The notes beneath the pieces are model-generated. The model ran no database searches and was not told the origin of the DNA. It saw only the letters and a program-made list of their open reading frames with translations. This document shows, piece after piece, positions 14,718 through 36,970 of a DNA stretch of 64,000 nucleotides (positions within the stretch are counted from its first letter, which is position 1; the number at the start of each line of letters is the position of its first letter). Position numbers and translations under genes: made by a program. The DNA lies in assembly GCF_055900595.2 (NCBI RefSeq), contig NZ_CM148325.1. One strand, written 5' to 3'.

Positions 14718-14779
14718 TTCTCCCCCTCATGTGATTCAGGCAGTTTACTCACCCCTTACAGGCCTCCTGCCATGCCCGG

Positions 14780-14806: not shown

Positions 14807-14871
14807 GCACTTTGTCTGTCCCTGCCCCGTTTTGCCATCATGAGACAAACGATCATCACGAGGGCCCGACA

Positions 14872-19685: not shown

Positions 19686-19830
19686 ACACCCCACCTGGGG
19701 AAATATCGGGATATGGAGCGACAGCCTCCTGGATGCACTGGAAACCTGCAACGCAGACAAACAGGCCATTGAGGCGCTGGAGCGCCGGAGACTCAACCGA
19801 CAGAACGGAGGGGGACATGCTGAAAAGTAA
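19546..19830 (+). CDS. o-spanin lipoprotein (Rz1/LysC-like); starts inside the i-spanin gene in another frame
   Basis: MSAPALFLTTVLLTGC carries a lipobox, followed by a proline-rich mature part. It overlaps and extends beyond the i-spanin gene, as P2 lysB/lysC do. Confidence 0.6.
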   Translation: MSAPALFLTTVLLTGCANTRNAPLPAPSFRFIPAGLTTGTRPPPFPEHPTWGNIGIWSDSLLDALETCNADKQAIEALERRRLNRQNGGGHAEK

Positions 19831-21843: not shown

Positions 21844-22740
21844 ATGCCTTCCGTTGACCTGTCACAGTTACCGGAACCGGCCATCATCGCGCAGCCGGAT
21901 TTTGAGTCCATCCTGGCAGACATTAAAACCATGATGGTGAGCTCCTTCCCGGAAGAATACCGCGCCGCCGTCACCCGTGCCCTTACTCTGGAATCCGAGC
22001 CATTGAACATCATTTCCCAGGCCATGGCCTTTCGTGAAATGCTGCTTCGCCAGCGCATCAATGAAGCCGCCCGCGCCTGCATGCTCAGCCACAGCCGGGG
22101 CAGTGACCTGGACAATCTGGCTGCCAACAACAACACCCGCCGCCTGGTCATTCATCCGGCCACTGATACCACGGAAGCAGTGATGGAAAGCGACACATCG
22201 CTGCGTCTGCGTGCCCAGTCAGCCTGGGACGGCCTGAGTGTGGCCGGACCGTCCGGCGCGTATGAGTATTTTGCCCGGAGCGCAAGCGGTCTTGTCCGTG
22301 ATGCGCGCGCCATCAGCCCGTCACCGGCCACAGTCACCGTCTCCATCCTGTCAGCAGACGGTGACGGCACCGCCGGTGAGGCGTTACTGAACACGGTGCG
22401 CACCGCCCTGAATGCCGAGAACGTGCGCCCGGTTGCCGACCGCCTGACTGTGCAGAGTGCTACCATCGTGAACTGGGAAATGGAAGCGAAGCTGTATTTT
22501 TATCCAGGGCCGGAGTCTGAACCCATGCTTGCGGCCGCTGACGCCGCTTTCCGTGCATGGCTGGCAGACCAGGGCCGTATCGGTCAGGATGTGGCCCTGT
22601 CAGCCATCACTGCAGCGCTGCATGTTCACGGTGTCCAGCGCGTTGAGGTCATAAAACCCACGCAGAACATCACCATCAGTGACACTCAGGCAGCCAGATG
22701 TACCACATTCAGCATCAGCGAAGGAGGACGCAATGAGTGA
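21844..22740 (+). CDS. J: Baseplate wedge protein, P2 gpJ-like
   Basis: Size, position and N-terminus (DLSQLPEP.II...DFE.IL...K) fit P2 J. Confidence 0.85.
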   Translation: MPSVDLSQLPEPAIIAQPDFESILADIKTMMVSSFPEEYRAAVTRALTLESEPLNIISQAMAFREMLLRQRINEAARACMLSHSRGSDLDNLAANNNTRRLVIHPATDTTEAVMESDTSLRLRAQSAWDGLSVAGPSGAYEYFARSASGLVRDARAISPSPATVTVSILSADGDGTAGEALLNTVRTALNAENVRPVADRLTVQSATIVNWEMEAKLYFYPGPESEPMLAAADAAFRAWLADQGRIGQDVALSAITAALHVHGVQRVEVIKPTQNITISDTQAARCTTFSISEGGRNE

Positions 22741-23461
22741 CAGGAAAAAAACAGACAGCGCACAGCACAGTACATCACTGCTTCCACCGTCCGCAGGGCC
22801 ATTCATGCGCGCCACAGAGGCGACAGGAGTACGCATCAGTACCATACCGGTGGACGCCGACACCCTGTGGTCGCCGGACCGCTGCCCTGCTCACCTCCTG
22901 CCCTACCTTGCATGGGCATGTTCCGTTGACCGCTGGGACCGCAACTGGCCGGAAGAGACCAGACGACAGGTGATTGGCCAGTCCTGGAAGGTACACCGCC
23001 AGAAAGGAACGGTCAGCGCACTGAGGGAAACAGCCGCAGCATTCGGTTATGAGATGACCATCAGTGAATGGTGGGAGCATGGAGGGCAGCCGGGCACCTT
23101 TACTGTGACCATCGGGGCAGACACTCAGGGCATCGGCCCTGAAACATGGCTGGAGATGGAGGATCTGCTCAATGATGCACGTCCGGTTTCACGTCATATG
23201 ACGGGGCTTTATGCCGCCCTGCGTTCTGGCGTGACGGTTTACTGCGCTGCGGGAGCAGGCTGTGATGAGCTTGTAACCATTCACCAGAAAGCTCGCGCCT
23301 CCCTGGCGGGCCAGGTGACCATCATCGCAGCAGGAGACACACACACAACCGACAGTGTGACCGTACTGCCGGGGGTTCCGTCAGGTATGTACGGGGAGAT
23401 CTGTATCCGTACCGGCGCAGGTATATTCGTGAGTGAGATTGTGGAGGTTATCACCTTATGA
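22733..23461 (+). CDS. I: Baseplate protein, P2 gpI-like, with a C-terminal extension (242 aa)
   Basis: From the ATG at 22733: ..LW.PD.CPA.LLPYLAWA.SVDRWD..WPE..+R.VI......H..KGT..A.R matches P2 I. Confidence 0.85.
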   Translation: MSDRKKTDSAQHSTSLLPPSAGPFMRATEATGVRISTIPVDADTLWSPDRCPAHLLPYLAWACSVDRWDRNWPEETRRQVIGQSWKVHRQKGTVSALRETAAAFGYEMTISEWWEHGGQPGTFTVTIGADTQGIGPETWLEMEDLLNDARPVSRHMTGLYAALRSGVTVYCAAGAGCDELVTIHQKARASLAGQVTIIAAGDTHTTDSVTVLPGVPSGMYGEICIRTGAGIFVSEIVEVITL

Positions 23462-24573
23462 ACACCGATTTTTATTCCGTTCTGACGGATGCCGGGCTGA
23501 AAAAACTGGCGGCAGCCGCAGCATCAGGGAATCAGATGAAAATCACCCATATGGCTGTAGGCGACGGAAACGGAAAAGCCGTAACACCCGGCAGGGCCGA
23601 CACCAGGCTTGTCAGGGAAAAATACCGTGCGCCACTGAACAGTCTGGAAGAAGACACAGAGAGACCGGGGCATGTTATCGCAGAAATGGTGATACCTGAA
23701 AAACAGGGAGGGTGGTGGATCAGAGAATTCGGATTATTCGACGAAGACGGCGGAATGATTGTTACAGGCAAATTTCCTGACACATGGAAGCCTGCACCTG
23801 GTCAGGGTGGAGCACGACTGATATCAGTGAAAGTGGTTGTGGCAGTATCACATACAGAAAACATTGTGCTGAAAGTGGATCCTTCTGTTGTCATGGCAAC
23901 CCGGGAATGGGTGAACACAAAAGCAGAGCAGTTAAAGAAAGAGCTCAGACAACCTGATGCAACCACCAAAACAAAAGGCATTGTTCAGCTTAGCAGTGAC
24001 ATCAACAGCACCTCTGAAACGCAGGCTGCCACCCCCGGAGCGGTAAAAGCCGTGAATGATCGTGTGGACGGAAAACAGGACGCGGATCCCACGCTCACAT
24101 CTCTGTCCGGGAAAAATGCACAGCAACTGAGGCAGCTTCTGGGGCTGGGCACGCTTGCCACCCTGAACAGGGGCACCGGTTCAGGGAATGTGCCGGACAT
24201 GAGTCACTTTGCGAGTAAAAAAGCAGACTACGGTTACCAGTGTTTTCCTGGCGGCATAATGATCCAGTGGCTGCGGATCCCCTCAGACCACACAGAAAGA
24301 GCTGTCAGTCAGGAAGCCCGGGTGGCACTAAGCGGCGTGCGACTGTTTTCAGTGGAGGGTAACTGGAACGGTAATAACATGATTAAGACCCTGGCAAACT
24401 ACCAGTGGCCGAGAGTTTTCGGGGCAATTTATGCGACCGTTGCAACCAGGAATCACGGATCTGCATGGCGAGTATATCCGGTGTCCGCGAACAAGGATGT
24501 GCGTGTCGTATCCATTGCCTGGGCGGGAGAAGGTACAGATGACACTTATGTGGTTGGGGTGGGAAGAGTATGA
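23458..24573 (+). CDS. H: Tail fibre protein, P2 gpH-like N-terminus with a divergent short C-terminal domain (371 aa)
   Basis: The N-terminus ..AGLKKLAAAAASG....ITHMAVGDGNGK resembles P2 H (..AGAAKLAAATAPG....ITTMAVGDGGGK). The C-terminal half is unrelated to what I recall of P2 H. Confidence 0.8.
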   Translation: MNTDFYSVLTDAGLKKLAAAAASGNQMKITHMAVGDGNGKAVTPGRADTRLVREKYRAPLNSLEEDTERPGHVIAEMVIPEKQGGWWIREFGLFDEDGGMIVTGKFPDTWKPAPGQGGARLISVKVVVAVSHTENIVLKVDPSVVMATREWVNTKAEQLKKELRQPDATTKTKGIVQLSSDINSTSETQAATPGAVKAVNDRVDGKQDADPTLTSLSGKNAQQLRQLLGLGTLATLNRGTGSGNVPDMSHFASKKADYGYQCFPGGIMIQWLRIPSDHTERAVSQEARVALSGVRLFSVEGNWNGNNMIKTLANYQWPRVFGAIYATVATRNHGSAWRVYPVSANKDVRVVSIAWAGEGTDDTYVVGVGRV

Positions 24574-25016
24574 AAATGATGTGGTCGCCGTCTGTGGGCG
24601 GTTTTTTTGGTGAAGACAGCAGCCATATACCGGAAGATGCGGTGGAGGTTGATGAATCGATGTGGAGCAGGATGATGGAGGGACAACTTGAGGGAAAAAT
24701 TATCGTTAACGGCCCTGACGACCTGCCTGTTCTGGAAGAGCGTCCGGGACCGGGGCCAGAAGAATACCGGCATCAGGCTCGCCTTGAGCTTGCTGACCTT
24801 CGCCGACAGGGGCTGGAACACATAGAGTCGATGCGCTGGCGTGACAAAGCGGTCATGAACAGGCTGGGAGAAGAGGAGAAGCAGGAGTATAACGCCTGGC
24901 TTGACTGGCTCGACGCGCTTGACAGTACGGACATATCAGGGGCACCGGATGTGGTGTGGCCGGTGATGCCCGTCACGGTGGTTCCTGAACATCCTCAGAA
25001 AAAATTGCCGGAGTGA
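24570..25016 (+). CDS. G: Tail fibre assembly chaperone (gpG/Tfa-like)
   Basis: ATGA overlap with H. The size and acidic composition are typical of Tfa proteins. Confidence 0.7.
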   Translation: MKMMWSPSVGGFFGEDSSHIPEDAVEVDESMWSRMMEGQLEGKIIVNGPDDLPVLEERPGPGPEEYRHQARLELADLRRQGLEHIESMRWRDKAVMNRLGEEEKQEYNAWLDWLDALDSTDISGAPDVVWPVMPVTVVPEHPQKKLPE

Positions 25017-25022
25017 ACAGCC

Positions 25023-25050
25023 TCCGGCCTGAGACTGCACTCAGGCCGGA
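25023..25050. terminator. 11-bp hairpin between convergent G and U (possible bidirectional terminator; no clear U-tract)
   Basis: TCCGGCCTGAG-ACTGCA-CTCAGGCCGGA. Confidence 0.4.
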
Positions 25051-25057
25051 AATTCTG

Positions 25058-25504
25058 TTATCTGCCAGCATTGCGGATGATACCCGAAAGCATATCAGAC
25101 ACCGACGGCATCATTCGCTCCCGCAAATCCTCATCACAGCGTTCCATACTGACAGTGAACTCAATTTTTTTGGCCTTACCGTGGCGGTCAAGTTCGCTTC
25201 GCGTTGTGCGGACAGCCGTTATCACATACATGCCGTATATCTGCCCCACACCGTCAATCAGCGGCCATGGGCGGCCAGTGTAAGCCTGCGTCGTTAAAAG
25301 GCTGAGGGAAACCTCACCGCCGGTAATTTCGGGATAAAGCACACCGGACAACGTGATCTGGTCGTCACCCGCCCCGATATACTGCCAGCTGGCCGAACGA
25401 TTGATGCGTTCATTTTTAACGTGGCGCCAGGTTTTATTATGTTGCAGTTGTTGATGAGGCAGCGTGCGCAACTCAAAAACAAACATGCCGTAAATCATCA
25501 TCAT
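25058..25504 (-). CDS. U: Tail protein, P2 gpU-like
   Basis: MMMIYGMFVFELRTLPHQQLQHNKTWRH...ITLSGVLYPEITGG compares with P2 U MMMVLGLFVFMLRTVPYQELQYQRSWRH...ITLSGVLYPELTGG. Confidence 0.85.
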   Translation of the reverse strand: MMMIYGMFVFELRTLPHQQLQHNKTWRHVKNERINRSASWQYIGAGDDQITLSGVLYPEITGGEVSLSLLTTQAYTGRPWPLIDGVGQIYGMYVITAVRTTRSELDRHGKAKKIEFTVSMERCDEDLRERMMPSVSDMLSGIIRNAGR

Positions 25505-25515
25505 GCGAGGTACTC

Positions 25516-28500
25516 CTAATCTCTGTCACGGAAACTACCGACTGTCTGGCGGATACGGCGTTCCATTTCCGCACGGACGGCATCACCCACCATTTTTGCC
25601 AGTTCGCGCGGGTTTTGCGTGTGAACATCATGCAGGTGAATATGCAGTTCGCCAGTTAATCCCCATGGTGCCGGATCACTCTGACGCGGTCGGGGCGATG
25701 CGGGGGATATGGGCTGGCGCACAGCCTCAACCACCGGACGGGATGTTGCCGTTACGACGGGTGTCATTACCGGCGCAATATTGCCGGACACTACCGGTTT
25801 AATTACCGGGGAGAGCGTCGGTATAACATCGCCAGCCATAACCGGTTTGATCGCTGGCGAAATAACCGGAGCAACAGACTCAGCCATGACGGAACTGACA
25901 GGCTGAGGCGCTCTCACTATGCCAGCATCGATAACCAGCATGAGCTCGCGTACTGCCTCAAGGACAGGACGGGATATTGCCGCCATCACTGGTGTCATTA
26001 GCGGGGAGAACGTCGGCATGACATCGTGAGTCATAACCGGTTTGATCACCGGCGAAACCACCGGCGTAATATTACCGGACAGTACCGGACGGACGACCGG
26101 AGGAATAACCGGCACATTATTCACGGACACCACCGGCTTCACGACCGGCGACACGTTCGCCGTGGTGGATATCAGCGGCGAAACACTGACAGGCGGTGGC
26201 GCTGGCAGCGGTGGCAACGAAGGCACACTGACCGACGGCACCTGCGGCAGTCTGACAGGTGGCTCACTGACACTACCCGGTAACAGGGAAGCTGCGCGGT
26301 TAAAGCGTTCCTCCTTCCACTCACCACGAACGGCCAGCGCTTCCGGCAGGTTTTTAAAGATAATATCGCCGGGACCAGTGCGTTTTTTCGCCTGTTTCGC
26401 CTCATCCAGCAGGCCACCGGTGTTATCGACGATTTTATTCAGGCGACGCATGGTGCCGGTATTCTCCCCCGTCAGCGGAGCAGTTGCTGCAGGTGCAGGT
26501 ACTGGCGGCTTTTTGTCTTTGTCATTTTGCGGCGGATTAATGACATTAACATCCGCCAGGAGCATGGCGGCTTTCTCGTTCAGCAGCTCCTTCTGCTTCA
26601 GCTCTTCCGCCTTTTTCCGGGCGCGCTCAACCGCCGACGGAATCAGCCCGAGTTTTTCCAGCACCCGGGTTAATGAGTCAATCAGCAGCGTAACCGGACC
26701 GGTCACCAGATTGCTGATAAACTCCCCGACCTTCTGCCCGAACGTCCGCCCGGCTTCCGTGCACTTGTCCAGCTCATCCTTTGTTGTGCTTACCGGCGCG
26801 AACAAATCCACGAACCACTGCCACACACGCCCGATTGTCTGCCCGACATACTCAAACAATGGTCCCAGTGGTGCCACAGCCTCGCGCAGTGGCGTAAGCC
26901 CCTGCCACAGGCCGGACAAGAACCCGCCCACGACAGCCTTCAGCTGGTCCCAGTGCCGCCAGATAAGCACTGCCGCACCGACCAGTGTCGCCACCACAAG
27001 GCCCACCGGACTTAACAGAAAACCCAGCGCCCCGCCAAGTGCGCCCACCGCACCACTCACCATCCCCCACAGTGCGGGCAGACCTGACAGTCTGAGCGCC
27101 AGTATTCCGATACCGCGCCCCAGTGAAATCAGTGCGCCGCCAGGTGAAGTGAACGCAGCCAGCAGACCACCACGCAGCGCGCCAAGTCCCGCCTGCACAC
27201 CACGAAGCCGCCCCGCAACTACGCCCAGCAGTGCAGCAAACCGTCCGGCACCGGAGGTGATACCGACAAACAGCACGCGCCAGCCACCGATACCGCCCAG
27301 CGGACCACCGAGTACGCCGCGCAGCTGCGTCAGTAACGGCAGCGCACGACCGAGGCCGGATGTGCCGGTCAGCAGGGCAAACCCAAGACGCAGTTTTGCC
27401 AGCGGCCCCATCAACACACCAGTGGCAAGTGACAGCGCCCCCATGGCCGCAACCGCAGCCAGCAGTGCACCACCGGCAATCAGCAGTTGTTTTGTCAGTT
27501 CAGGGTGCGCCTGGGCCAGCGCGGTGACTTTCGCAATAACCCGGGTGAACGACTGCGTGACAGAACGCAGCGGCCCGTCAACGAGGTCAGCGACACGGAT
27601 ACGCAGCCCTTCCCATGCGCTGTTCAGTGATTTCAGGTCGCCGTCCAGGTTGTCCGCCATGATTCTGGCGTTTTCTTCCAGTTCGCCGTTCGCTGCCTGA
27701 ATCTCACGCGTCAGGCGCGGCAGGTTTTTTTCGCCTGCCTGTTCAACCAGGCTCATCAGGGAGACATACGCCTCCTGCCCGGCAATATCTGAAAAGAACG
27801 AGACTTTTGCCGCGTTACCGTATTTACGGGTGGCCTGATACAGCTCATACAGGATATCTTCCATCGGGCGCATGTTCCCGTAAGCATCCTGCGTTTCCAC
27901 GCCCAGCTGTTTCAGCGCCTTTGCTGCCGCTTTAGGCGGGTTCACAAGGCGGGACAGACTGGAGCGCAGCGCCGTACCAGCATCACTGCCACGTATCCCC
28001 ATCGACCCAAGCAACCCGGTCATGGCTGCGGTCTGTTCAAGAGACAGACCGAGTGAGGCGGCGACCGGTCCCGTATATTTCATCGTCTCACCAAGCCCGC
28101 GCAGGTCGGTATTGGTGCGGGTGAACGTTGCGGCCAGCGTGTCACCCACGCGGTTCATCTGGTCGGCAGACAACCCGAACTGCGTAAGGATATTTGAGCT
28201 GATATCGGCCGTCTGACCGAGGTCCATGCCGCTGGCCGTTGCCAGATTCAGCACGCCGGGAAGAGCCGCCTGTATCGCCTGCGGCGTGAACCCCGCCATG
28301 GCAAGGAACGCCTGACCGCTGGCAGCATCACCTGCGGTAAACTGCGTTTCGGAGCCGAGTTTAAGCGCCTGTTCGCGCAGCGCCTTAAACTGCGGACTGT
28401 TTTTGTCAATACGGGTCAGCGCCTGGACGCGCGACATCTCCTTACCAAAACTGACCGCCGGTTGCAGGAAACGCCCGGCCGCATAGCCACCTGCCGCTGC

Positions 28501-29058
28501 CGTGCCGACTGCCGTAAATCCACCCGCTTTCAGTTTTCCCGCCATCTCCTGAGCGCGGAAATATTGCTGGCGTGCCTGCGTGACGCGTGCCAGAGTCTGC
28601 CGTTCACGTTCCAGCTGTTCGTTGTATTGCTGTGTTCGCCGTATGGCCTGTTGAATGGTGTTGTCACTGCCGGAAAGCGCAATACCGTGACGCCGCAGCT
28701 CACCACCCAGTTCGCGCATTCGCTGAACTTCACGCGCACGGACCTCATTGAGACGCTCAAGTTTGAGGCTCAAATCGTTCATCAGCTTTTTCTGTTTGTC
28801 AGACAGCACGGTTCCGGCGCGCTGAATTTGCTGAAGTGCGCTTAACTGGCGTTGTGCCCGGGCAATGCCGTTTCCGGCCTTGTTTGCAGCCTCGCGGGCG
28901 CGATCAAATGAACGGGCGTGGCGTTCCAGGTTTTTGATCGCACCCTGCGTTCTCTGTATGGAGTCGCCAAGCTGGCCCATCATGCGACGGGCGTTTTCGG
29001 TGGGACGGGTCAGCCTGTCAACAGCGCTGAAGGCGACCCGTATATCAAGCGTTTTCAT
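25516..29058 (-). CDS. T: Tail tape-measure protein, gpT-like (about 1180 aa from the ATG at 29058; the track start at 29094 is GTG)
   Basis: Long helical, Ala/Gly/Leu-rich protein with a central hydrophobic region, between E/E' and U. The C-terminal third carries P/V-rich tandem repeats. Confidence 0.9.
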   Translation of the reverse strand: MKTLDIRVAFSAVDRLTRPTENARRMMGQLGDSIQRTQGAIKNLERHARSFDRAREAANKAGNGIARAQRQLSALQQIQRAGTVLSDKQKKLMNDLSLKLERLNEVRAREVQRMRELGGELRRHGIALSGSDNTIQQAIRRTQQYNEQLERERQTLARVTQARQQYFRAQEMAGKLKAGGFTAVGTAAAGGYAAGRFLQPAVSFGKEMSRVQALTRIDKNSPQFKALREQALKLGSETQFTAGDAASGQAFLAMAGFTPQAIQAALPGVLNLATASGMDLGQTADISSNILTQFGLSADQMNRVGDTLAATFTRTNTDLRGLGETMKYTGPVAASLGLSLEQTAAMTGLLGSMGIRGSDAGTALRSSLSRLVNPPKAAAKALKQLGVETQDAYGNMRPMEDILYELYQATRKYGNAAKVSFFSDIAGQEAYVSLMSLVEQAGEKNLPRLTREIQAANGELEENARIMADNLDGDLKSLNSAWEGLRIRVADLVDGPLRSVTQSFTRVIAKVTALAQAHPELTKQLLIAGGALLAAVAAMGALSLATGVLMGPLAKLRLGFALLTGTSGLGRALPLLTQLRGVLGGPLGGIGGWRVLFVGITSGAGRFAALLGVVAGRLRGVQAGLGALRGGLLAAFTSPGGALISLGRGIGILALRLSGLPALWGMVSGAVGALGGALGFLLSPVGLVVATLVGAAVLIWRHWDQLKAVVGGFLSGLWQGLTPLREAVAPLGPLFEYVGQTIGRVWQWFVDLFAPVSTTKDELDKCTEAGRTFGQKVGEFISNLVTGPVTLLIDSLTRVLEKLGLIPSAVERARKKAEELKQKELLNEKAAMLLADVNVINPPQNDKDKKPPVPAPAATAPLTGENTGTMRRLNKIVDNTGGLLDEAKQAKKRTGPGDIIFKNLPEALAVRGEWKEERFNRAASLLPGSVSEPPVRLPQVPSVSVPSLPPLPAPPPVSVSPLISTTANVSPVVKPVVSVNNVPVIPPVVRPVLSGNITPVVSPVIKPVMTHDVMPTFSPLMTPVMAAISRPVLEAVRELMLVIDAGIVRAPQPVSSVMAESVAPVISPAIKPVMAGDVIPTLSPVIKPVVSGNIAPVMTPVVTATSRPVVEAVRQPISPASPRPRQSDPAPWGLTGELHIHLHDVHTQNPRELAKMVGDAVRAEMERRIRQTVGSFRDRD

Positions 29059-29571
29059 GCTCTGCGTTCCCGCTGCGAAGGGCCGCCCGCTCACGCCAGG
29101 CGACCACCTCGCCGGGATCCATCAGGAAGATTTCAGCGGGAGACCAGTTGAAAATAACGGCGATATCCGCCACAAAGTCTTCAATATGCTCAAAGGGCAC
29201 GACGGTTATCAGCCTGCCGTCGCCGCCACGCTCTTCCCGCCAGAGTCCTGACCGGCCAAAAAATTAACCGCCACCCCGCACAGCTGAATAAAATCAGCGG
29301 ACCCCATGCGCTTAAGCAGAACCTCGTCCAGTCGCGGCGAAGTGACGCGCGGGAGTAACTCAAACATCGCGTCCGTTTTCATGTTCAGCACGTCAAGCAG
29401 TGACAGCCCGCGCAGTGAACCGGCCTGCTGTACAGCAGGCGTGATTTCCACATACGTGATTTTTTTGTTACCGAGCACAAGGGGCGTTTTCAGCGTCACG
29501 CCGCGCTCACTGGTCACGTCCGCCGCATCAGCACCGTCAGTAACAGGGGCAACAACCGGATTTTCTTTCAT
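29045..29571 (-). CDS. gpE+E' fusion made by a -1 programmed frameshift
   Basis: The slippery heptamer T TTT TTG lies on the minus strand at 29263-29257 in the E frame. The -1 frame stays open for 70 further codons (FFGRSGLWREER...WSPAEIFLMDPGEVVAWRERAALRSGNAEHENA) and stops at 29047-29045, overlapping the T start. This is the established arrangement in P2-like and many other tailed phages. Confidence 0.75.
29209..29571 (-). CDS. E: Tail assembly chaperone, P2 gpE-like
   Basis: Position between FII and T. It contains the conserved slippery site near its 3' end. Confidence 0.85.
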   Translation of the reverse strand: MKENPVVAPVTDGADAADVTSERGVTLKTPLVLGNKKITYVEITPAVQQAGSLRGLSLLDVLNMKTDAMFELLPRVTSPRLDEVLLKRMGSADFIQLCGVAVNFLAGQDSGGKSVAATAG

Positions 29572-29621
29572 GAATAAAACCTCAAATCAGGGGGCGACGC
29601 CACGCGCCGCCGTGGAAAACA

Positions 29622-30140
29622 TTAACCACCAAGACCAATCGCCGAGCGCACGCGGTCCGGGAAGACGCTTTTGCCGTCCTTGCGTTCGATGTGGTTCAGT
29701 AAATCAATCTCCAGCACCGGACGGTCGTTAATGCTGAGTTTGTAGTAGGTACTTTTGACCGCATAGGTGTGAGACGTGACCTCACCCTGTTTGGCCTCCC
29801 CGGTATCAATTTCCGTCACGCGACCGCGAAGCTCAATCTCGTACAGGTCACTCTGTTCTTCATCGTTGTAGTACTCACCGACAAAGCGCAGCAGCGTACC
29901 GTCAATCGTTCCGCCGTACTTGAGGAACAGTTCGCGGGTCGGCCCGCCCATGGTGAAACTCGCATCCAGCGCGCCGTCATCCAGGCCAAGGTCGATATTT
30001 ACTGCACCGGCCATACCACCACCGCGATAGGCTTCCGTTTTACGGGTCAGTTTGGGGGCCGTGAAGCCGGTCACTCTGCCAATCTGGTTCACCCCGTCAG
30101 TAAACAGCGTGAACACCCTGAGATTTTTTGGTACGGCCAT
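29622..30140 (-). CDS. FII: Tail tube protein, P2 FII-like
   Basis: ..PKLTRKTEAYRGGGMAGAVNIDLGLDD.AL......GG and EIDTGEAKQGE match remembered P2 FII. Confidence 0.9.
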   Translation of the reverse strand: MAVPKNLRVFTLFTDGVNQIGRVTGFTAPKLTRKTEAYRGGGMAGAVNIDLGLDDGALDASFTMGGPTRELFLKYGGTIDGTLLRFVGEYYNDEEQSDLYEIELRGRVTEIDTGEAKQGEVTSHTYAVKSTYYKLSINDRPVLEIDLLNHIERKDGKSVFPDRVRSAIGLGG

Positions 30141-31423
30141 TAAGCACCTCCAAGCGTCGCAAATGCAGGACCAAAGAATTCATCAGTAAACGTCTGGTAA
30201 AGTTCCATATCCTCAAGCGGCGGAACGGGCGTGTACTTGTAGCGGATACGCACGCGTCCCTGACGAAGTTCCGTGGTGCTGTTATCCACCACGTCATACC
30301 AGCACTCCGCACCAACGAGACGTCCTGACGTAACCAGCGCATCCAGTTTTGCGCGAATTGCGCTTAACACGTCTTTCACATTAGCAGGGGTCAGCGGGGC
30401 ATCAATCGTTTCAAACTGCGCTTCCGCAACAGAATCAGCCAGCACCTGAGCGGTTCGCGTGTACACCTCAAAGATATACGCCTTCGTTTCCGGCGTACGG
30501 TTGCCCCAGAAGCGGAAACCGTTACGGCGAATGATGGTGGTGATTTCCTTGTTGTTGAGATTGTTGGCATCGCTGTCTTCGGACTGAAGGGACCAGAACA
30601 CCGGGCTGGAAATACCCAGCACATTTCTTACCGGCACGTTGGACAGCGATTTATGCCAGCCCTGTTCGTGGTCAATACGTGCACGTAAACCGCAGGCGTA
30701 CGCCGCAGCCGGGAAGACCTCATTAGCGCCGGATTTCGGGTTATGGGCGATGAAGTCAGGCCAGAGCAGCATAAGTTCGCGCTCGTTAAATCTGGCGCGG
30801 TAGCTGATTGCATCAGCGGGCTTCTTGCAGTTGTGACAGCCCGCGTAGACAAATGCGCGAAGTTTTTCTGCAATTACACACAGGGATTTTGTGACAGCTT
30901 CAGTATCCAGTCCGGGCGCTGCGATGATGCGCGGACGGTAACCGATGGCATCATCCTGTTCAGCTATCAGAAGTGCATACATACCGGTATAATTACCGTC
31001 GTCATCCGTGCCACCAATGACATACTGGTCCTGCGTTTTGTGTGGGTATACAGGATGTGCATCTTCAGACTCATCAATACCAAAAAATGCCCTGTCTTCA
31101 GGATCCAGATGACCGAATGATGTAACTCCTGTATCCGGGGCGCCCTGAGAACTGGCATCAGGAACGCGCACCACAATCACCTTCGTGCTCACCTGGTCGG
31201 CGACAGCCTTAAGTGAACGGTACAGCGTGCCCTTTGTGCCGGTCTTACCCAGCACATCACTGACGCGGGTCAGCAGTATGGGTTTGTTCAGCGGGAACAG
31301 AGTTTCATCCGCGTCATCTGCCGTAGCCACAATACCAATAACACTGGAATCCACATCATTAATGGCGGTGGTAAGGCCGGTACTTTCCCTTACGCGCGCA
31401 CCATGAAAGCGTGTTTCACTCAT
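30140..31423 (-). CDS. FI: Contractile tail sheath protein, P2 FI-like
   Basis: From the ATG at 31423: ..DADETLFPLNKPILLT, RELMLLWPDF, LRARIDHEQGWHKSLSNV, IRRNGFRFWGNRT and YTRTAQVLAD all parallel P2 FI. Confidence 0.9.
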   Translation of the reverse strand: MSETRFHGARVRESTGLTTAINDVDSSVIGIVATADDADETLFPLNKPILLTRVSDVLGKTGTKGTLYRSLKAVADQVSTKVIVVRVPDASSQGAPDTGVTSFGHLDPEDRAFFGIDESEDAHPVYPHKTQDQYVIGGTDDDGNYTGMYALLIAEQDDAIGYRPRIIAAPGLDTEAVTKSLCVIAEKLRAFVYAGCHNCKKPADAISYRARFNERELMLLWPDFIAHNPKSGANEVFPAAAYACGLRARIDHEQGWHKSLSNVPVRNVLGISSPVFWSLQSEDSDANNLNNKEITTIIRRNGFRFWGNRTPETKAYIFEVYTRTAQVLADSVAEAQFETIDAPLTPANVKDVLSAIRAKLDALVTSGRLVGAECWYDVVDNSTTELRQGRVRIRYKYTPVPPLEDMELYQTFTDEFFGPAFATLGGA

Positions 31424-31507
31424 ATGTTTCACCCTTGTCTGGCTGGTTGATTTTGCGTAATCATTACCCACGATGCCGCCGGTATCATCTCCTGCCCGTT
31501 CTCACCG

Positions 31508-31523
31508 TTCGCTTACAACAAAC
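31508..31523. promoter_or_regulatory. Second copy of the late-promoter 16-mer, in the FI/D divergent gap
   Basis: TTCGCTTACAACAAAC is identical to 14791-14806. Here only the ACA half of the TGT-N12-ACA dyad is perfect (TCT-N12-ACA). CATGAC lies 40 nt downstream; in the O promoter region CATGAG lies 41 nt downstream. Confidence 0.45.
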
Positions 31524-31583
31524 AGCCGTTCACCACGGTCGCACGCCGTGAAAACATGACGGGACACACCACGAGGGCAGACC

Positions 31584-32675
31584 ATGACCGACCTGTTAAT
31601 CAACGTTCCGTCACCGGATATCGAAATCACCATCAACAACAACAGACTCCGTAACGTCACGGAGCGGCTCATGACGCTGTCACTGACCGACAACCGGGGC
31701 TTTGAGGCGGACCGCGTCACCCTGACCATTGACGACGCGGACGGGCAGCTTCAGCTGGCACAGCGCGGCGCACGCCTGAACGTGATGATTGGCTGGCGCG
31801 GGGAGGCGCTGGTTAACAAGGGTGTCTACATCGTTGATGAAGTGACGTGGGAAGGCCCGCCGGACAAACTGACCATCACCGCCAGCAGCGCCGATTTTCG
31901 CGAAGAGTTCAACGTGAAGCGTGAAGTCTCCTGGCACGACGTGACGGTAAAACAGGTTGTGTCAGCCATCGCGCACCGCTACGGCCTGAAAGCACAGATA
32001 AGCGATATCCTCATGGATATCGAAATTGACCACGCAGACCAGACCGAAGAGAGCGATATATCCTTCCTGACCCGCATGGCTGAAATGCTGGGTGCGATTG
32101 CCACCGTAAAAAACGGCAGCCTGTTATTCATTCTGCCGGGTGGCGGAACCGGGCCGGACGGAAGAGCCCTGCCTTCGTTCGCCATTACCCGCAGCAGCGG
32201 CGACAGTCACCGCTTTCGCATTGCTGACCGTGATGCGTATACGGGGGTCCGGGCGCACTGGCTCGATCTGAAGTTCGGGCAAAAGAAAAAAGTGAACGTG
32301 AAGCGACGCAGGGAAGCCGGGAAACAGAAACAGGAGAAGAGCAGCAGCCGGGAAGGTGATTACATGGAGGGCGCGGAAGGGAACGTCTACGTTCTGCGCA
32401 GGACTTACCAGAATGAAGAAACCGCACGACGTGCAGCAGCTGCAAAGTGGCAGGAACTACAGCGGGGCGCGGCATCATTCTCCATCACGCTGGCGCGCGG
32501 TCGTGCCGACCTGTACCCTGAAATGCACGGCAGGGTAACAGGTTTTAAAAGCGAGGTGGACAATCAGGACTGGATTATTGCCAGGGTGGAGCACAGCATA
32601 GATGAAAGCGGCTTCACCACACAACTGGAGCTGGAAGCGAAAATCCCCGAATGGATAGCAGATTCAGGCGGATAA
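31584..32675 (+). CDS. D: Late tail/baseplate hub protein, P2 gpD-like
   Basis: ..MTLSLTDNRGFEADRVTLTIDDADGQ, SWHD, GDYMEG, KW..LQRG.A.FSI.LA.GRADLY match remembered P2 D. Confidence 0.9.
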   Translation: MTDLLINVPSPDIEITINNNRLRNVTERLMTLSLTDNRGFEADRVTLTIDDADGQLQLAQRGARLNVMIGWRGEALVNKGVYIVDEVTWEGPPDKLTITASSADFREEFNVKREVSWHDVTVKQVVSAIAHRYGLKAQISDILMDIEIDHADQTEESDISFLTRMAEMLGAIATVKNGSLLFILPGGGTGPDGRALPSFAITRSSGDSHRFRIADRDAYTGVRAHWLDLKFGQKKKVNVKRRREAGKQKQEKSSSREGDYMEGAEGNVYVLRRTYQNEETARRAAAAKWQELQRGAASFSITLARGRADLYPEMHGRVTGFKSEVDNQDWIIARVEHSIDESGFTTQLELEAKIPEWIADSGG

Positions 32676-32718
32676 AATTAAAATGAGCCATCTCCACTCA
32701 GCCAGATAAGGAGAAGCC

Positions 32719-32970
32719 ATGTTCCGTTGTCCCCTGTGCGGTGCATCCGCACGTATCCGCACCAGTCGCAATGAAAATGATTCAGGCACAGTTCGCCTGA
32801 AGTACTACCAGTGCAATAACCTCGAATGCGGGATCGGCTTTACCACACTGGAGGGTTTTAACAAATTCACATCAAAACGCGCCCCGTCGCCGCAGGGTAC
32901 AGAGCGGATACCGTGGGAAGATTTTCCGGGATCTCACAGGGGGAATGCTCAGATGAATCTTGATATTTAA
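32719..32970 (+). CDS. ogr: Late transcription activator, Ogr/Delta zinc-finger family
   Basis: MFRCPLCGASARIRTSR.......RLKYYQCNNLECG..FTT compares with P2 Ogr MFHCPLCQHAAHARTSR....ERYHQCQNVNCSATFIT (C-X2-C...C-X4-C). Confidence 0.85.
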   Translation: MFRCPLCGASARIRTSRNENDSGTVRLKYYQCNNLECGIGFTTLEGFNKFTSKRAPSPQGTERIPWEDFPGSHRGNAQMNLDI

Positions 32971-33019
32971 GAACAATAATCAGGTTGAGAGGACATCATA
33001 AGGCAAGTAGATTAACGGC

Positions 33020-33114
33020 AGATACTTTCCCGCAACCACGGGCAAGTATTTAATTATCCATGATGAAATATGACCTAAATTGTTTTTTGCCCGCCGGAAA
33101 GCGGGCATTTTTTT
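33020..33114 (+). ncRNA. sRNA-like module A (also an attR-core candidate)
   Basis: Promoter-like TTGAGA (32985-32990), 17-nt spacer, TAGATT (33008-33013). Extended stem-loop at 33020-33051. AU-rich single strand, then terminator GCCCGC-CGGAAA-GCGGGC followed by A and U7 (33089-33114). Confidence 0.35.
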
Positions 33115-33328
33115 ATTCTTTTGTGGTTATGGGGTCATCAGGAACCACGTGCAGATTATATTTTTGTTTTTTTGGCGTTCCTCCGGCAGCAACGAGTTCA
33201 TCAATAAGACACTGACACGCCTGAACATCCCGGGCATGTCTTAGTTTCACCTTTATTGATTTAACCTTATCCTCACCGGAGGAGAAATGCAGTTCAATCT
33301 CAATATCGTTTCTTCGGAACAATCTCAT
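33113..33328 (-). CDS. Small protein orf71 (71 aa), unknown family; paralogue of orf73
   Basis: G-rich SD (CAGGGGGG) 4 nt before the ATG. MRLFRRNDIEIELHFSSGEDKVKSIKVKLRHARDVQACQCLIDELVAAGGT... aligns by eye with orf73. AT-rich cassette. Confidence 0.45.
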   Translation of the reverse strand: MRLFRRNDIEIELHFSSGEDKVKSIKVKLRHARDVQACQCLIDELVAAGGTPKKQKYNLHVVPDDPITTKE

Positions 33329-33423
33329 ACGCCCCCCTGAACATATCAGAAATGCTAGTATCGAAAAATGAGAAAACAGTTAGACAGGAGAAACATATTA
33401 ACACAAATCATTTATACCTATAG

Positions 33424-33441
33424 ATGAAATTATAATTTCAT
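33424..33441. promoter_or_regulatory. Perfect 18-bp palindrome in the orf71 / module-B divergent gap
   Basis: ATGAAATTA|TAATTTCAT. It contains TATAAT on both strands. Candidate operator. Confidence 0.3.
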
Positions 33442-33500
33442 TCATGAATATGATAGATAACTATATTGTGAACAAAATGAAAAATGGCTAAATTAAAAAT

Positions 33501-33581
33501 GGGCATGGAGGAATGCCTCGTAATCAGTAATACATGATCCATACTTCCTTGTTTTGCCCGCCGGAAAGCGGGCATTTTTTT
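33501..33581 (+). ncRNA. sRNA-like module B
   Basis: TTGTGA (33466-33471), 17-nt spacer, TAAATT (33489-33494). 5' hairpin GGCAU-GGAGGA-AUGCC. Its terminator is identical to that of module A (33556-33581). Confidence 0.3.
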
Positions 33582-33685
33582 GGCGGTTACCATCGCCTCA
33601 CCTTCCTGGTTCACACAAAGCAACCCTGATTTTCCATGAAAACTTCAGGGTTGAGCCAAAAGCACAAAGACAGTAGATTAACCAA

Positions 33686-33783
33686 GGGTACCCGCCACCT
33701 GCCAACAGGAACGGTATCCAGTACGTATTAATGACTGACAATTCACATTGCTGTTTTGCCCGCCAGAAGGTGGGCATTTTTTT
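33686..33783 (+). ncRNA. sRNA-like module C
   Basis: TTGAGC (33651-33656), 17-nt spacer, TAGATT (33674-33679). Stem GGGUACC/GGUAUCC (33686-33692 / 33713-33719) encloses CCUG-CCAA-CAGG. Terminator GCCCGCC-AGAA-GGUGGGC followed by U-run (33758-33783). Confidence 0.35.
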
Positions 33784-33888
33784 GGCAGTTATCATGGACG
33801 CACCTTCATGACACATATTAAGCAGACCTGATTTTTCCATGAAAAATTCATGGTTGAGACAAAAGCACAAAAACAGTAGATTAACCAC

Positions 33889-33987
33889 GGGTGCCTGCCA
33901 CCTGACAACAGGAAGGGGTGTCCATTATCCATGATATACAAACGAAAAGTCTTGTCTTTTGCCCGCCGTTGCGCGGGCTTTTTTTTT
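33889..33987 (+). ncRNA. sRNA-like module D
   Basis: TTGAGA (33854-33859), 17-nt spacer, TAGATT (33877-33882). The homologous stem 33889-33895 / 33917-33923 keeps pairing only through G-U wobbles. Terminator GCCCGC-CGUUGC-GCGGGC followed by U9 (33961-33987). Confidence 0.35.
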
Positions 33988-34016
33988 GCCACCCTCACCA
34001 GTGAGGGTACCATCAT

Positions 34017-34238
34017 TCAGAGGCGCGTAAGCCACCCGGCGTTAACATCCTGCCCGTCAACCCTGACCGCAGAGTCTGAACGGCAGGCACCGGAAGCAGT
34101 ACCAAAAACACCTCTGACAAGTTCCGCCACCTTCCCGATATCATCAGGCGCCACATTCCTCACCTCGACAGCGATCCGTGGCGTACCATCATCGTTAACA
34201 AGCGTGGCTTTAAGGCTGGTACGACGGGCAAATAACAT
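34017..34238 (-). CDS. Small protein orf73 (73 aa), paralogue of orf71
   Basis: Strong SD GGGAGGGGG 5 nt before the ATG at 34238. MLFARRTSLKATLVNDDGTPRIAVEVRNVAPDDIGKVAELVRGVFGTASG... The longer 95-aa track ORF lacks an SD. Confidence 0.45.
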   Translation of the reverse strand: MLFARRTSLKATLVNDDGTPRIAVEVRNVAPDDIGKVAELVRGVFGTASGACRSDSAVRVDGQDVNAGWLTRL

Positions 34239-34288
34239 CAACACCCCCTCCCTTCGGTTCGTTGCACTGGCAGCACGATACCACCAGG

Positions 34289-34329
34289 AAAAAGAAAAGC
34301 CCACAACGTCAGGATTGCGGGCTTTTTTT
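34289..34329. terminator. Bidirectional terminator / last att-core-like hairpin before the copA promoter
   Basis: AGCCCACAA-CGTCAGGA-TTGCGGGCT flanked by an A-run (5' side) and T7 (3' side). In style it resembles the remembered P2 att core (AAAAAATAAGCCCG...). Confidence 0.5.
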
Positions 34330-34395
34330 CTTCAAAAATGGACACTACGTGGACACTGATTAAATAATCCTTTCTTAATCAGACTGTTAAAATGC

Positions 34396-34426
34396 TTGAC
34401 CTTCCCCTTGCTGGAAGGTTTAACCT
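34396..34426 (+). promoter_or_regulatory. copA promoter with CueR (MerR-type) operator
   Basis: TTGACC (34396-34401), 19-bp spacer, TAACCT (34421-34426). Dyad ACCTTCC-N7-GGAAGGT at 34399-34419. This is the established CueR-activated promoter architecture. Confidence 0.85.
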
Positions 34427-34465
34427 TTAACACAGTCAGTCAACACTGTCTTAAAGGAGTACGTT

Positions 34466-36970
34466 ATGTCACAAACTATCGACCTGACCCTGGACGGCCT
34501 GTCCTGCGGTCACTGCGTTAAACGCGTGAAAGAAAGTCTCGAACAGCGCCCGGATGTTGAGCAGGCGGATGTGTCTATCACTGAAGCGCACGTTACCGGT
34601 ACTGCCAGTGCAGAACAGCTGATCGAAACCATCAAACAAGCGGGTTATGACGCATCTGTAAGCCACCCAAAGGCTAAACCGCTGGCGGAGTCATCAATCC
34701 CGTCGGAAGCACTGACAGCGGTTTCTGAGGCGCTTCCGGCAGCAAACGCCGATGACGATGACAGTCAGCAGTTGCTGCTGAGCGGCATGAGCTGCGCCAG
34801 CTGTGTTACCCGCGTACAAAATGCGCTGCAAAGCGTACCGGGCGTCACTCAGGCACGGGTAAACCTGGCGGAGCGTACTGCGCTGGTGATGGGCAGTGCC
34901 TCCCCACAAGATTTAGTGCAGGCAGTGGAAAAAGCGGGCTACGGCGCGGAAGCGATTGAAGATGACGCTAAACGCCGCGAGCGCCAGCAGGAAACCGCCG
35001 TCGCTACCATGAAGCGCTTCCGCTGGCAGGCAATTGTCGCTCTGGCGGTAGGTATCCCGGTGATGGTCTGGGGGATGATCGGCGATAACATGATGGTCAC
35101 CGCCGACAACCGCAGTCTGTGGTTAGTTATCGGCCTGATAACGCTGGCGGTAATGGTTTTCGCCGGCGGGCATTTTTACCGTAGCGCATGGAAAAGCCTG
35201 CTGAACGGTGCGGCGACAATGGATACGCTGGTGGCGCTGGGTACTGGCGTGGCGTGGCTCTATTCAATGAGCGTCAACCTGTGGCCGCAGTGGTTCCCGA
35301 TGGAAGCGCGACATCTTTATTACGAAGCCAGTGCGATGATTATCGGTCTGATTAATCTCGGTCATATGCTGGAAGCGCGCGCACGTCAGCGTTCTTCAAA
35401 GGCGCTGGAGAAATTACTCGATTTAACCCCGCCGACGGCGCGCCTGGTCACTGACGAAGGTGAAAAAAGCGTGCCGCTGGCAGATGTTCAGCCTGGTATG
35501 TTACTACGCCTGACGACCGGCGATCGCGTACCGGTAGATGGTGAAATTACCCAGGGCGAAGCGTGGCTGGATGAAGCAATGCTGACGGGCGAACCTATTC
35601 CGCAGCAAAAAGGCGAAGGCGATAGCGTTCATGCAGGTACCGTGGTGCAGGACGGTAGCGTGCTGTTTCGTGCCAGTGCGGTTGGCAGCCATACTACGCT
35701 GTCACGGATCATTCGTATGGTGCGCCAGGCCCAGAGCAGTAAACCGGAAATCGGCCAGTTGGCGGATAAAATCTCTGCCGTATTTGTGCCGGTAGTGGTG
35801 GTGATTGCGCTGGTCAGTGCGGCAATCTGGTACTTCTTTGGTCCGGCACCGCAAATTGTTTATACCCTGGTGATTGCCACTACGGTACTGATTATCGCCT
35901 GCCCGTGTGCGCTGGGGCTGGCAACGCCAATGTCGATTATTTCCGGCGTCGGGCGTGCGGCTGAATTTGGCGTGCTGGTGCGGGACGCCGACGCGCTGCA
36001 GCGCGCCAGTACGCTCGACACCGTAGTGTTCGATAAAACCGGGACGCTGACCGAAGGGAAGCCGCAGGTTGTCGCAGTAAAAACATTTGCTGATGTTGAT
36101 GAAGCGCAAGCATTGCGTCTGGCGGCGGCACTGGAACAAGGTTCCAGCCATCCGCTGGCACGGGCGATCCTCGATAAAGCAGGCGATATGCAGCTGCCGC
36201 AGGTCAACAGCTTCCGTACATTGCGTGGGCTGGGCGTGAGCGGTGAAGCAGAAGGTCATGCGTTATTGCTGGGTAATCAGGCGTTGTTAAATGACCAGCA
36301 AGTCGATACTAAAGCGATTGAAGCAGATATTTCAGCCCAGGCATCGCAAGGGGCAACGCCTGTGCTGCTGGCGGTTGACGGGAAAGCGGTGGCCTTGCTG
36401 GCGGTGCGCGATCCGTTGCGTAACGATAGTGTGGCGGCACTGCAACGTCTGCATAAAGCGGGATATCGTCTGGTGATGCTAACCGGGGATAACCCGACCA
36501 CCGCCAATGCGATCGCCAAAGAAGCAGGGATTGATGAGGTGATAGCCGGCGTGCTGCCAGACGGTAAAGCCGAAGCGATCAAACGTCTGCAAAGTGAAGG
36601 ACGTCAGGTGGCAATGGTGGGCGACGGCATTAACGACGCGCCAGCGCTGGCTCAGGCGGATGTCGGTATTGCTATGGGTGGCGGCAGCGATGTTGCCATT
36701 GAAACCGCGGCGATTACCCTGATGCGCCATAGCCTGATGGGTGTTGCGGATGCGCTCGCAATTTCCCGCGCAACGCTGCGCAACATGAAGCAGAACCTGC
36801 TCGGTGCGTTTATCTACAACAGCATTGGTATTCCGGTCGCCGCCGGTATTTTGTGGCCGTTCACGGGAACACTGCTTAACCCGGTGGTTGCCGGAGCGGC
36901 AATGGCGCTCTCGTCGATTACCGTAGTGAGTAACGCCAACCGGTTGCTGCGGTTTAAACCGAAGGAATAA
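34466..36970 (+). CDS. copA: Cu(I)-exporting P-type ATPase
   Basis: 834 aa, with two N-terminal GLSCGHC/GMSCASC metal-binding domains, CPC, DKTGT and GDGINDAP motifs. Recognised as E. coli CopA. Confidence 0.97.
34666..34672 (+). other. copA -1 programmed frameshift site giving CopA(Z)
   Basis: Slippery C CCA AAG at codons 67-69. The -1 frame reads GGC TAA, giving the published 70-aa metallochaperone product. Confidence 0.7.

Follow-up and report, generated by a model that had tools for sequence, protein, structure and literature searches.

The 64,000-nt stretch of DNA analysed here (the window; NCBI RefSeq assembly GCF_055900595.2, contig NZ_CM148325.1) carries an E. coli prophage of the P2-like family Peduoviridae, which lies between glsA and copA. 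A near-identical prophage (99.5%) is present in strain CM2, whereas E. coli Z0117EC0005, which lacks the prophage, shows a 100% match to the right flank. Gene identities were assigned from Pfam and PHROGs profile matches, and the genes and intervals that bear on the late region are as follows.

5783-8272: gpA, rolling-circle replication initiator (Phage_GPA, 4.9e-102)
12966-14717, minus strand: P, large terminase (Terminase_6N/6C and a gpP-like domain)
14872-15708, plus strand: O, scaffold (Phage_GPO, 1.1e-87)
24570-25016, plus strand: G, tail fibre assembly protein (Pfam Caudo_TAP, 2.1e-15; phrog_188)
25017-25057: G/U gap between convergent genes, 41 bp
25023-25050, plus strand: terminator-like hairpin in the G/U gap, 11-pair stem with 8 GC
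25028-25007, minus strand: terminator-like hairpin overlapping the plus-strand one, then AATTTTTTCT
25058-25504, minus strand: U, tail protein (Pfam Phage_P2_GpU, 6.7e-41)
25516-29058, minus strand: T, tape measure (PhageMin_Tail, 3.3e-58; phrog_28, 4.8e-186)
29045-29571, minus strand: span of E and E+E' (sequence and ORFs)
29045-29200, minus strand: E', in the -1 frame relative to E
29209-29571, minus strand: E (phrog_103, 4e-31)
29622-30140, minus strand: FII, tail tube (Pfam Phage_tube, 3.8e-44)
30140-31423, minus strand: FI, tail sheath, 427 aa (PF04984, PF22671, PF17482; phrog_23, 3.5e-119)
31424-31583: FI/D gap between divergent genes, 160 bp
31584-32675, plus strand: D, baseplate hub / late control D protein (Pfam Phage_GPD, 4.4e-17; phrog_52, 7.4e-150)
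32719-32970, plus strand: ogr, zinc-finger late activator (Pfam Ogr_Delta, 4.9e-14)
33088-33107, plus strand: terminator-like hairpin with a T7 run after ogr, at the close of the D-ogr unit

Preceded by H and I on the plus strand, G is the final gene of a long plus-strand unit, O...S-V...G. Because S (20274-20915) overlaps V (20912-21493) and leaves no space for a pV promoter, O...G would form one long transcription unit. The initial annotation had placed U, T, E/E', FII and FI (25058-31423) on the minus strand, and the profile identities and strands agree. It was also right about the convergence of G and U around an 11-bp stem, although the gap measures 41 bp rather than 42 bp, and about the divergence of FI and D across 160 bp. 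D, which it described as left on its own, is indeed uncoupled from FI-U but is not alone, because the co-directional ogr starts 43 bp downstream. In a scan of 14-33.5 kb, the plus-strand hairpin between G and U headed the list of terminator-like sites and had the highest numbers of stem pairs (11) and of G-C pairs (8). All tail ORFs of the prophage are intact. T probably starts at the ATG at 29058, which gives a protein of ~1180 aa, while its longest ORF reaches 29094. A P2-type slippery site, T TTT TTG, was found by sequence inspection at 29257-29263 within E, and a -1 frameshift there into the E' frame would yield E+E'. The RefSeq annotation of the CM2 prophage contains a 'GpE family' ORF and the same FI start (ATG 31423). 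The Ogr translation carries four cysteines in the arrangement CX2C-X24-CX4C.

The gene content is that of Peduoviridae throughout. P and Q (portal) diverge from O, accompanied by N (P2-family capsid) and M, and the names of these head and packaging genes are supported by the CM2 RefSeq annotation; gpA occurs together with an Ogr/Delta late activator, and the contractile-tail set is represented by V, W, J, I, H, G, FI, FII, E/E', T, U, D, R and S. The synteny is of the P88 type, with FI...U opposite to V...G and D-ogr, and with FI and D head to head. The ICTV genus criterion is ~70% nucleotide intergenomic similarity. VIRIDIC-like blastn estimates place the prophage outside Xuanwuvirus (~41% to P88 and ~38% to 520873; megablast, 75-78% identity over 27-46% of the query) and outside Novemvirus (~29% to phiT5282H). 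Judged by genome similarity, it is an undescribed genus-level lineage without a close isolated relative, since it is only ~41% similar to P88. PADLOC and Pfam searches of the cargo ORFs of the prophage recognised no defence system.

We compared the order of the tail genes with that of other P2-like phages and prophages. The P2 annotation puts FI-FII-E-T-U-D on the strand of V-G. Compared with P2, the block is therefore inverted, as the initial annotation stated, and the inversion also holds against the 186-type and Fels-2 order. The inverted order was found in Xuanwuvirus P88 and 520873, Novemvirus phiT5282H, Reipivirus Kp4851-1 and Reginaelenavirus Kp4860-2, that is, in four ICTV genera. It was present in 80 of 80 IMG/VR relatives whose D is 73-99% identical, and in 59 of 59 prophages of species-representative genomes with D at least 57% identical, which come from ~25 genera, almost all Enterobacterales. 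The phylogenies of D, FI and U delimit a clade in which every one of the 141 loci scored, the window among them, is inverted. The 19 scorable loci with D at 52% identity or below all have the canonical P2 order; five further loci in this range had no FI match and were left unscored. Within E. coli, 1079 of 5426 complete genomes (~20%) carry the head-to-head FI/D junction colinearly, 25 match window positions 12000-33000 colinearly at a coverage of at least 80%, and the RefSeq annotation of strain CM2 gives an order identical to that of the window.

Neighbour-joining trees of D, FI and U, unrooted and with the window in each set, parted inverted from canonical loci by a single branch (bootstrap 100, 100 and 96 of 100), and the window's three proteins fall on the inverted side. 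D identity reaches a minimum of 54% inside the inverted set and a maximum of 57% between the sets; a D cut-off therefore cannot cleanly split the arrangements, and the case for a single event is built on the split in the trees. The canonical order in the outgroups phiCTX, Shewanella M16-3 and Vibrio MAR, together with the general sheath-to-hub order of contractile tails, sets the polarity of the inversion. The one-branch split in all three trees thus points to one ancient inversion. Independent inversions may have occurred elsewhere in Peduoviridae, since the canonical relatives form a small sample (21 loci) picked by two D peptide patterns. No convincing flanking inverted repeats were found between the block ends (25017-25057 versus 31424-31583), where only chance-level pairs appeared; the best pair near both ends (24951/31555, 18 nt, 83% complementarity) is unremarkable among 95 pairs. 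The initial annotation had likewise seen none at the two breakpoints, and none would be expected, given the age of the inversion. Taken as comparative sequence evidence, these patterns indicate that the flipped block is lineage synteny from one ancient event and not a rearrangement of the window prophage; the reading of a rearrangement in the initial annotation gives way to an arrangement that is the norm for described P2-like genera. Our literature search found no paper describing the FI...U inversion or an FI/D promoter, though the genomes are public. The P88 and phiSM papers give genome maps without discussing orientation, and other matches to 'inversion' concerned tail-fibre cassettes or IS elements.

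The spacer between FI and D has a counterpart between P and O, and the two regions contain the following elements.

14718-14871: P/O control region between divergent genes, sister of the FI/D region
14783-14800: perfect TGT-N12-ACA dyad in the P/O spacer, with -10-like hexamers 45 nt to each side
31424-31583: FI/D control region between divergent genes, candidate bidirectional Ogr-dependent late promoter
31465-31460, minus strand: -10-like AATGAT toward FI
31500-31517: Ogr-type dyad TCT-N12-ACA in the FI/D spacer, motif match 5/6 (left half TCT, not TGT)
31552-31557, plus strand: -10-like AAACAT toward D, a weak -10

P2 late promoters are Ogr-dependent and have a TGT-N12-ACA consensus (PMC3931495). 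At the sequence level the window has the same features, namely an upstream dyad placed near -55 and a -10 at the matching distance. Around the FI/D dyad centre the two -10-like hexamers are mirrored, each at +44 to +49. The 16-mer TTCGCTTACAACAAAC of the FI/D spacer is common only to the P/O region (0 of 100 shuffles reached two matches), and the leaders of D and O have in common both this 16-mer and the CACGAGGGC Shine-Dalgarno context. Of 106 unique spacers, 97 contain a GTTGT-N12-ACAAC-like dyad scoring at least 8/10, and most of these dyads are located 75-88 nt from the FI ATG; the distance in P2 and canonical relatives is about 79-83 nt. Measured from the dyad centre in 32 diverse FI/D spacers (<80% identical), A2 and T6 of the -10 stand exactly at +44 in 97% of cases toward FI and in 81% toward D, whereas at any other offset they co-occur in at most 22%. 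Canonical pF regions show A2/T6 at +44 in 94% on the FI side but in only 19% on the far side. In the P2 annotation (NC_001895), pP and pO are assigned a single common activator site, and the pF start is placed ~57 nt from the dyad centre. A third composite dyad/-10 match, at window position 170, sits inside the AT-rich integrase gene and was regarded as a chance match.

These motifs and their conservation make the FI/D spacer a candidate bidirectional Ogr-dependent late promoter. An alternative would accept the clade-typical order but hold that D-ogr is not activated by Ogr from the shared dyad: D would depend on an unrelated promoter or solely on constitutive transcription of the ogr type, with the mirror -10 a coincidence. 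The imperfect half-site (TCT) and the weak D-side hexamer, which 19% of the diverse spacers lack, speak for this alternative. A generic sigma-70 scan detected no promoter in the FI/D spacer, a result expected for activator-dependent promoters with a poor -35 and equally for the absence of any promoter, and so uninformative. Against it, the D-side A2/T6 is sharply confined to +44, mirrors the FI side and is absent from the far side of canonical pF; the leader elements common to D and O likewise argue for late control, and D is an essential late tail protein that requires late expression. We therefore regard Ogr-independent expression of D as unlikely.

We propose, with high confidence, that the window's prophage belongs to a large, old branch of Peduoviridae in which FI-FII-E/E'-T-U was inverted once together with pF, leaving D-ogr as a late unit of its own. 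In this proposal the tail-shaft operon would have flipped once, long ago, taking the late promoter pF and its Ogr site along. The FI...U unit runs toward G and would end at the hairpin in the 41-bp gap. The Ogr dyad presumed to drive FI also faces D, where the clade has a -10 at the mirror position, so that the 160-bp spacer could act as a bidirectional late promoter built like the divergent P/O promoter. D and ogr would then make up a separate late unit that ends at the terminator downstream of ogr, and the late genes would be served by two bidirectional regions, P/O and FI/D. We also lean, somewhat more cautiously, towards a broader view: that the inversion created a second mirror-symmetric Ogr-dependent bidirectional late promoter (-10 at +/-44 nt), and that the whole branch runs all its late genes from these two regions. 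If so, the D hub and the Ogr activator are expressed independently of the sheath and tube genes. The inverted layout is functional, since P88 and phiSM, both of which have it, are plaque-forming, contractile-tailed phages (PMC5285337, PMC6456863).

Three other explanations of the order fare far worse. Gin/Cin/Hin-type invertases flip tail-fibre segments of Mu, P1 and P88-like phages, and a phase-variable block flipped by such an enzyme would occur in both orientations in populations. An invertase gene does adjoin U, at the left breakpoint, in P88, 520873 and 27 of 102 relatives; in the canonical Fels-2 it directly adjoins FI, and the ancestral inversion could conceivably have arisen when an invertase acted on a cryptic site. 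However, tblastn returned no match to the P88 invertase anywhere in the window, no inverted crossover sites were found at the block ends, orientation is uniform in the 141 clade loci, the junction is colinear in the 1079 E. coli genomes, and the D-side -10 has co-evolved with a fixed orientation. Present-day switching is thus very improbable. The invertases bear on a further claim of the initial annotation, the loss of the cargo position after G: this is so locally in the window, but 27 of 102 relatives carry an invertase and alternative tail-fibre segments at the G/U junction.

Even less credit attaches to the idea, refuted by the survey, of a recent event confined to this prophage or its strain, which would have broken the F operon, stranded D and perhaps left a defective prophage. 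Such an event would account for an order inverted against the P2, 186-type and Fels-2 genomes, but the other 140 scored clade loci, with D identity down to 54% and in four ICTV genera, are all inverted; a fifth of complete E. coli genomes have the same junction, P88 and phiSM are viable with it, and the tail ORFs are intact here. The remaining candidate, an assembly artefact in which a mis-joined contig or repeat flipped the 6.4-kb segment, was also raised by the initial annotation and has nothing in its favour beyond the unusual order; it can be set aside, because colinear copies exist in 25 independent complete E. coli genomes, the CM2 annotation shows the same order and the junctions lack repeats able to mislead an assembler.

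With the inversion read as old and fixed, the order seen in the window is what P88-like Peduoviridae normally show, and it is no sign of a defective prophage, of misassembly or of an active switch. It offers a clean, easily scored marker of a deep P2-like clade that spans at least four ICTV genera and was met in ~25 genera, almost all Enterobacterales. Pipelines for annotation and classifiers based on synteny should take account of this clade where they presume the P2 order. The branch may also serve as a natural experiment in how an activator-dependent promoter turns bidirectional: the dyad travelled with FI, and the new-side -10 appears only in the inverted clade.

Among known phages, P88 (Xuanwuvirus, Peduoviridae; NC_026014) resembles the window in having P-Q divergent from O...S-V...G, U-T-E'-E-FII-FI on the opposite strand followed by D and an ogr-type regulator, and a TCT-N12-ACA dyad in the FI/D spacer. 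The tail proteins are 59-85% identical (U 85, FI 77, FII 77, D 77, T 59%). P88 differs at the G/U junction, which measures 41 bp in the window but in P88 accommodates a DNA invertase together with an invertible tail-fibre cassette; its tape measure is shorter (935 aa versus ~1180 aa), and it also has ParM/partition genes. The Enterobacter phage phiT5282H and the Klebsiella phages Kp4851-1 and Kp4860-2 show the same inverted FI...U with D-ogr divergent and have D proteins 67-75% identical, but belong to other hosts and genera.

P2 (Peduovirus; NC_001895) has the same gene set (P, Q, O, N, M, L, X, lysis, R, S, V, W, J, I, H, G, FI, FII, E/E', T, U, D, ogr and gpA), the same T TTT TTG frameshift site in E/E', an Ogr zinc finger, TGT-N12-ACA sites ~80 nt upstream of FI and a terminator after ogr. 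Its proteins are 33-54% identical to those of the window. In P2, FI...D is a single operon on the V...G strand, whereas in the window FI...U is inverted and D-ogr stands apart; the interval from G to pF is occupied in P2 by the fun(Z) cargo, P2 has a separate pV promoter where S overlaps V in the window, and it uses four late promoters compared with the two bidirectional regions proposed for the window's branch. A rearranged late region is also known from the P2-like Stenotrophomonas phage Smp131, in which the late tail operons are reordered relative to P2 with TGT-N12-ACA promoters kept, and a single dyad read in both directions constitutes PP'/PO' (PMC3931495). By its published description, Smp131 differs from the window in that V and W moved between operons, and it comes from a distant host group. 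The closest parallel to the FI/D spacer is pP/pO of P2, where one dyad between divergent late genes is centred ~55 nt from each start, the geometry also found in the window; pP/pO serves packaging and head genes, whereas the FI/D region would serve the tail shaft and hub.

We assigned the genes of the window with Pfam and PHROGs, which confirmed every gene name and strand in the initial annotation:

12966-14717, minus strand, P
14872-15708, plus strand, O
19733-20281, plus strand, R
20274-20915, plus strand, S
20912-21493, plus strand, V
22679-23461, plus strand, I
23458-24573, plus strand, H
24570-25016, plus strand, G
25058-25504, minus strand, U
25516-29058, minus strand, T
29045-29571, minus strand, E/E'
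29622-30140, minus strand, FII
30140-31423, minus strand, FI
31584-32675, plus strand, D
32719-32970, plus strand, ogr

The P2-like prophage carrying them extends from window position 1, within the integrase gene, to ~33.4 kb, adjoining copA (34466-36970), and the stretch at 38-58 kb belongs to the E. coli chromosome (100% identity to several complete genomes). Strain CM2 has a 99.5% identical prophage, flanked by glsA and the copA side, whose RefSeq annotation gives the genes in the same order. FI-FII-E-E'-T-U-D form a single operon in P2, co-directional with V...G, whereas the block from U to FI is inverted in the window, as originally proposed. The convergent G/U gap contains the 11-bp stem described before but measures 41 rather than 42 bp; the divergent FI/D gap is indeed 160 bp. 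D is divergent from the block but not solitary, since ogr follows it. The P2-type E+E' frameshift site (T TTT TTG) lies at 29257-29263.

This inversion had been read as a rearrangement, unless it were an assembly artefact or the norm for a described P2-like genus. The late region of this prophage has colinear copies in 25 complete E. coli genomes, and the head-to-head FI/D junction is colinear in 1079 of 5426; misassembly and private rearrangement are both excluded. The order proved to be the norm for described P2-like genera: Escherichia phage P88 (Xuanwuvirus) matches the window exactly and the inverted order recurs in phage 520873 (Xuanwuvirus), Enterobacter phage phiT5282H (Novemvirus), and Klebsiella phages Kp4851-1 (Reipivirus) and Kp4860-2 (Reginaelenavirus). 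To score orientation, we then searched fetched loci with the window tail proteins by tblastn. The block was inverted in all 80 IMG/VR loci (D 73-99% identical), and also in 59/59 loci with D at least 57% identical in a second sample (80 loci from bacterial assemblies, one genome per species). These 59 span ~25 genera, almost all Enterobacterales, including Salmonella, Serratia, Symbiopectobacterium, Erwinia, Pantoea, Enterobacter, Kosakonia, Klebsiella, Providencia, Photorhabdus, Xenorhabdus, Morganella, Hafnia, and Yersinia. Where D was no more than 52% identical, all 19 scored loci were canonical, as were Fels-2 and Gegevirus; five further loci had no FI match and were left unscored. Because the two groups meet at the edges of their identity ranges, we built neighbour-joining trees, in which a single branch divides inverted from canonical loci (bootstrap of 100: D, 100; FI, 100; U, 96). 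All three outgroups (phiCTX, Shewanella phage M16-3, and Vibrio phage MAR) have the canonical order. The simplest reading of these sequences is that an ancient inversion happened once and has been fixed ever since, making the order lineage synteny.

Among the relatives, one P88-type enterobacterial prophage (NZ_JBQPOM010000071.1, 1-21050; D 77% and U 85% identical to the window) sits on a 226-kb Firmicute-labelled contig of 'Vagococcus sp. WN89Y', an assembly that is probably contaminated or mislabelled. An IS21-family element splits the sheath gene FI in the phage 520873 locus (31638-34782), and another is present in the E. coli GF60 copy of the window prophage; given such insertions in the tail block, some deposited members are likely defective.

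No evidence supports the block being an actively switching invertible segment: no invertase homologue was found in the window, crossover-type inverted repeats are absent from the two block junctions, in line with the initial annotation, and orientation is uniform in 141/141 clade loci. P88-type phages and 27/102 relatives do carry an invertase with alternative tail-fibre segments between G and U. The junction after G, previously considered lost as a cargo position, is therefore still a cargo site in the clade, although empty in the window. In canonical Fels-2, the invertase directly adjoins FI; that an invertase caused the original inversion is speculation.

P2 late promoters contain a TGT-N12-ACA dyad bound by the activator Ogr (PMC3931495). 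In the P2 annotation, divergent pP and pO have one activator site in common, and pF starts ~57 nt from the dyad centre. The window has a perfect dyad in the P/O spacer (14783-14800) and TCT-N12-ACA in the FI/D spacer (31500-31517). Both spacers contain the 16-mer TTCGCTTACAACAAAC, with no other copy in 64 kb (two hits in 0/100 shuffles), and the O and D leaders have the ribosome-binding context CACGAGGGC in common. The FI/D dyad is flanked by:

31465-31460, minus strand, -10-like hexamer AATGAT, FI side
31552-31557, -10-like hexamer AAACAT, D side

A GTTGT-N12-ACAAC-like dyad (score at least 8/10) was detected in 97/106 unique FI/D spacers of the clade, in most cases at 75-88 nt from the FI start codon. 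P2 and canonical relatives show the same spacing, so pF moved with the block. We aligned 32 spacers <80% identical on the dyad centre and scored the invariant -10 positions A2 and T6, which occurred at exactly +44 in 97% on the FI side and 81% on the D side (other offsets, at most 22%). In contrast, 16 canonical pF regions had the FI-side -10 in 94% but the far-side one in only 19%, and the D-side -10 is thus a feature of the inverted clade. At the window edge, within the AT-rich integrase gene, a third composite match (170-191; GATGT-N12-ACAAC with a -10-like hexamer to either side) was attributed to chance.

From motifs and conservation, we infer that pF was converted into a mirror-symmetric bidirectional late promoter, the FI/D spacer acting as an Ogr-dependent, P/O-like one. 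D-ogr would gain its own late transcript, terminating at 33088-33107, and the FI...U transcript would terminate at the hairpins at 25007-25050. S overlaps V in the window, as in P88 (S, 19576-20211; V, 20208-), leaving no spacer for the pV promoter or orf30-type insert, whereas P2 has one; O through G looks like a single transcription unit of ~10 kb. Given this overlap, and with no intergenic composite dyad/-10 site beyond P/O and FI/D, two bidirectional control regions would serve the late genes.

Several accessory features were also observed. The Ogr homologue (83 aa) has a CX2C-X24-CX4C cysteine spacing, versus the CX2C-X22-CX4C quoted for P2, and an extended C-terminus. Between gpA and the portal gene, a cargo region (8700-11900) at the P2 old/tin hotspot position contains:

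9615-10001, HVO_A0114-type winged-helix protein
10037-10411, minus strand, HTH_3 protein

PADLOC recognised no defence system in this region, and its ORFs 8938-9519, 10800-11159, and 11140-11844 had no family match. From the ogr terminator to copA, 33100-34460 is of low GC (0.42), contains a 142-aa ORF (33931-34359) without family match, and must hold the putative right end (attR). The tape measure T is longer than in P88 (~1180 versus 935 aa), and a tail longer than that of P88 is predicted; its C-terminal third has a duplicated Pro/Val-rich unit of ~70 aa (...SPVIKPVM...SRPVLEAVRE / ...PAIKPVM...SRPVVEAVRQ), and the CM2 annotation lists the gene as a truncated pseudogene.

P88 is mitomycin-inducible and plaque-forming, with a burst size of ~65 and a contractile tail of ~137-140 nm (PMC5285337), and the Citrobacter rodentium phage phiSM is temperate and active (PMC6456863). 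The inverted order is thus no bar to normal tail assembly. Genomes with this order have been public since 2014, and our literature search found no paper remarking on the block inversion or a bidirectional FI/D promoter. Only the inferred pF conversion is mildly novel. The prophage has the defining features of Peduoviridae but falls outside Xuanwuvirus (nucleotide similarity ~41%) and Novemvirus (~29%), and no deposited phage comes nearer than ~78% identity across a third of the genome. The prophage represents a new lineage within a known kind, with the known synteny of its clade.
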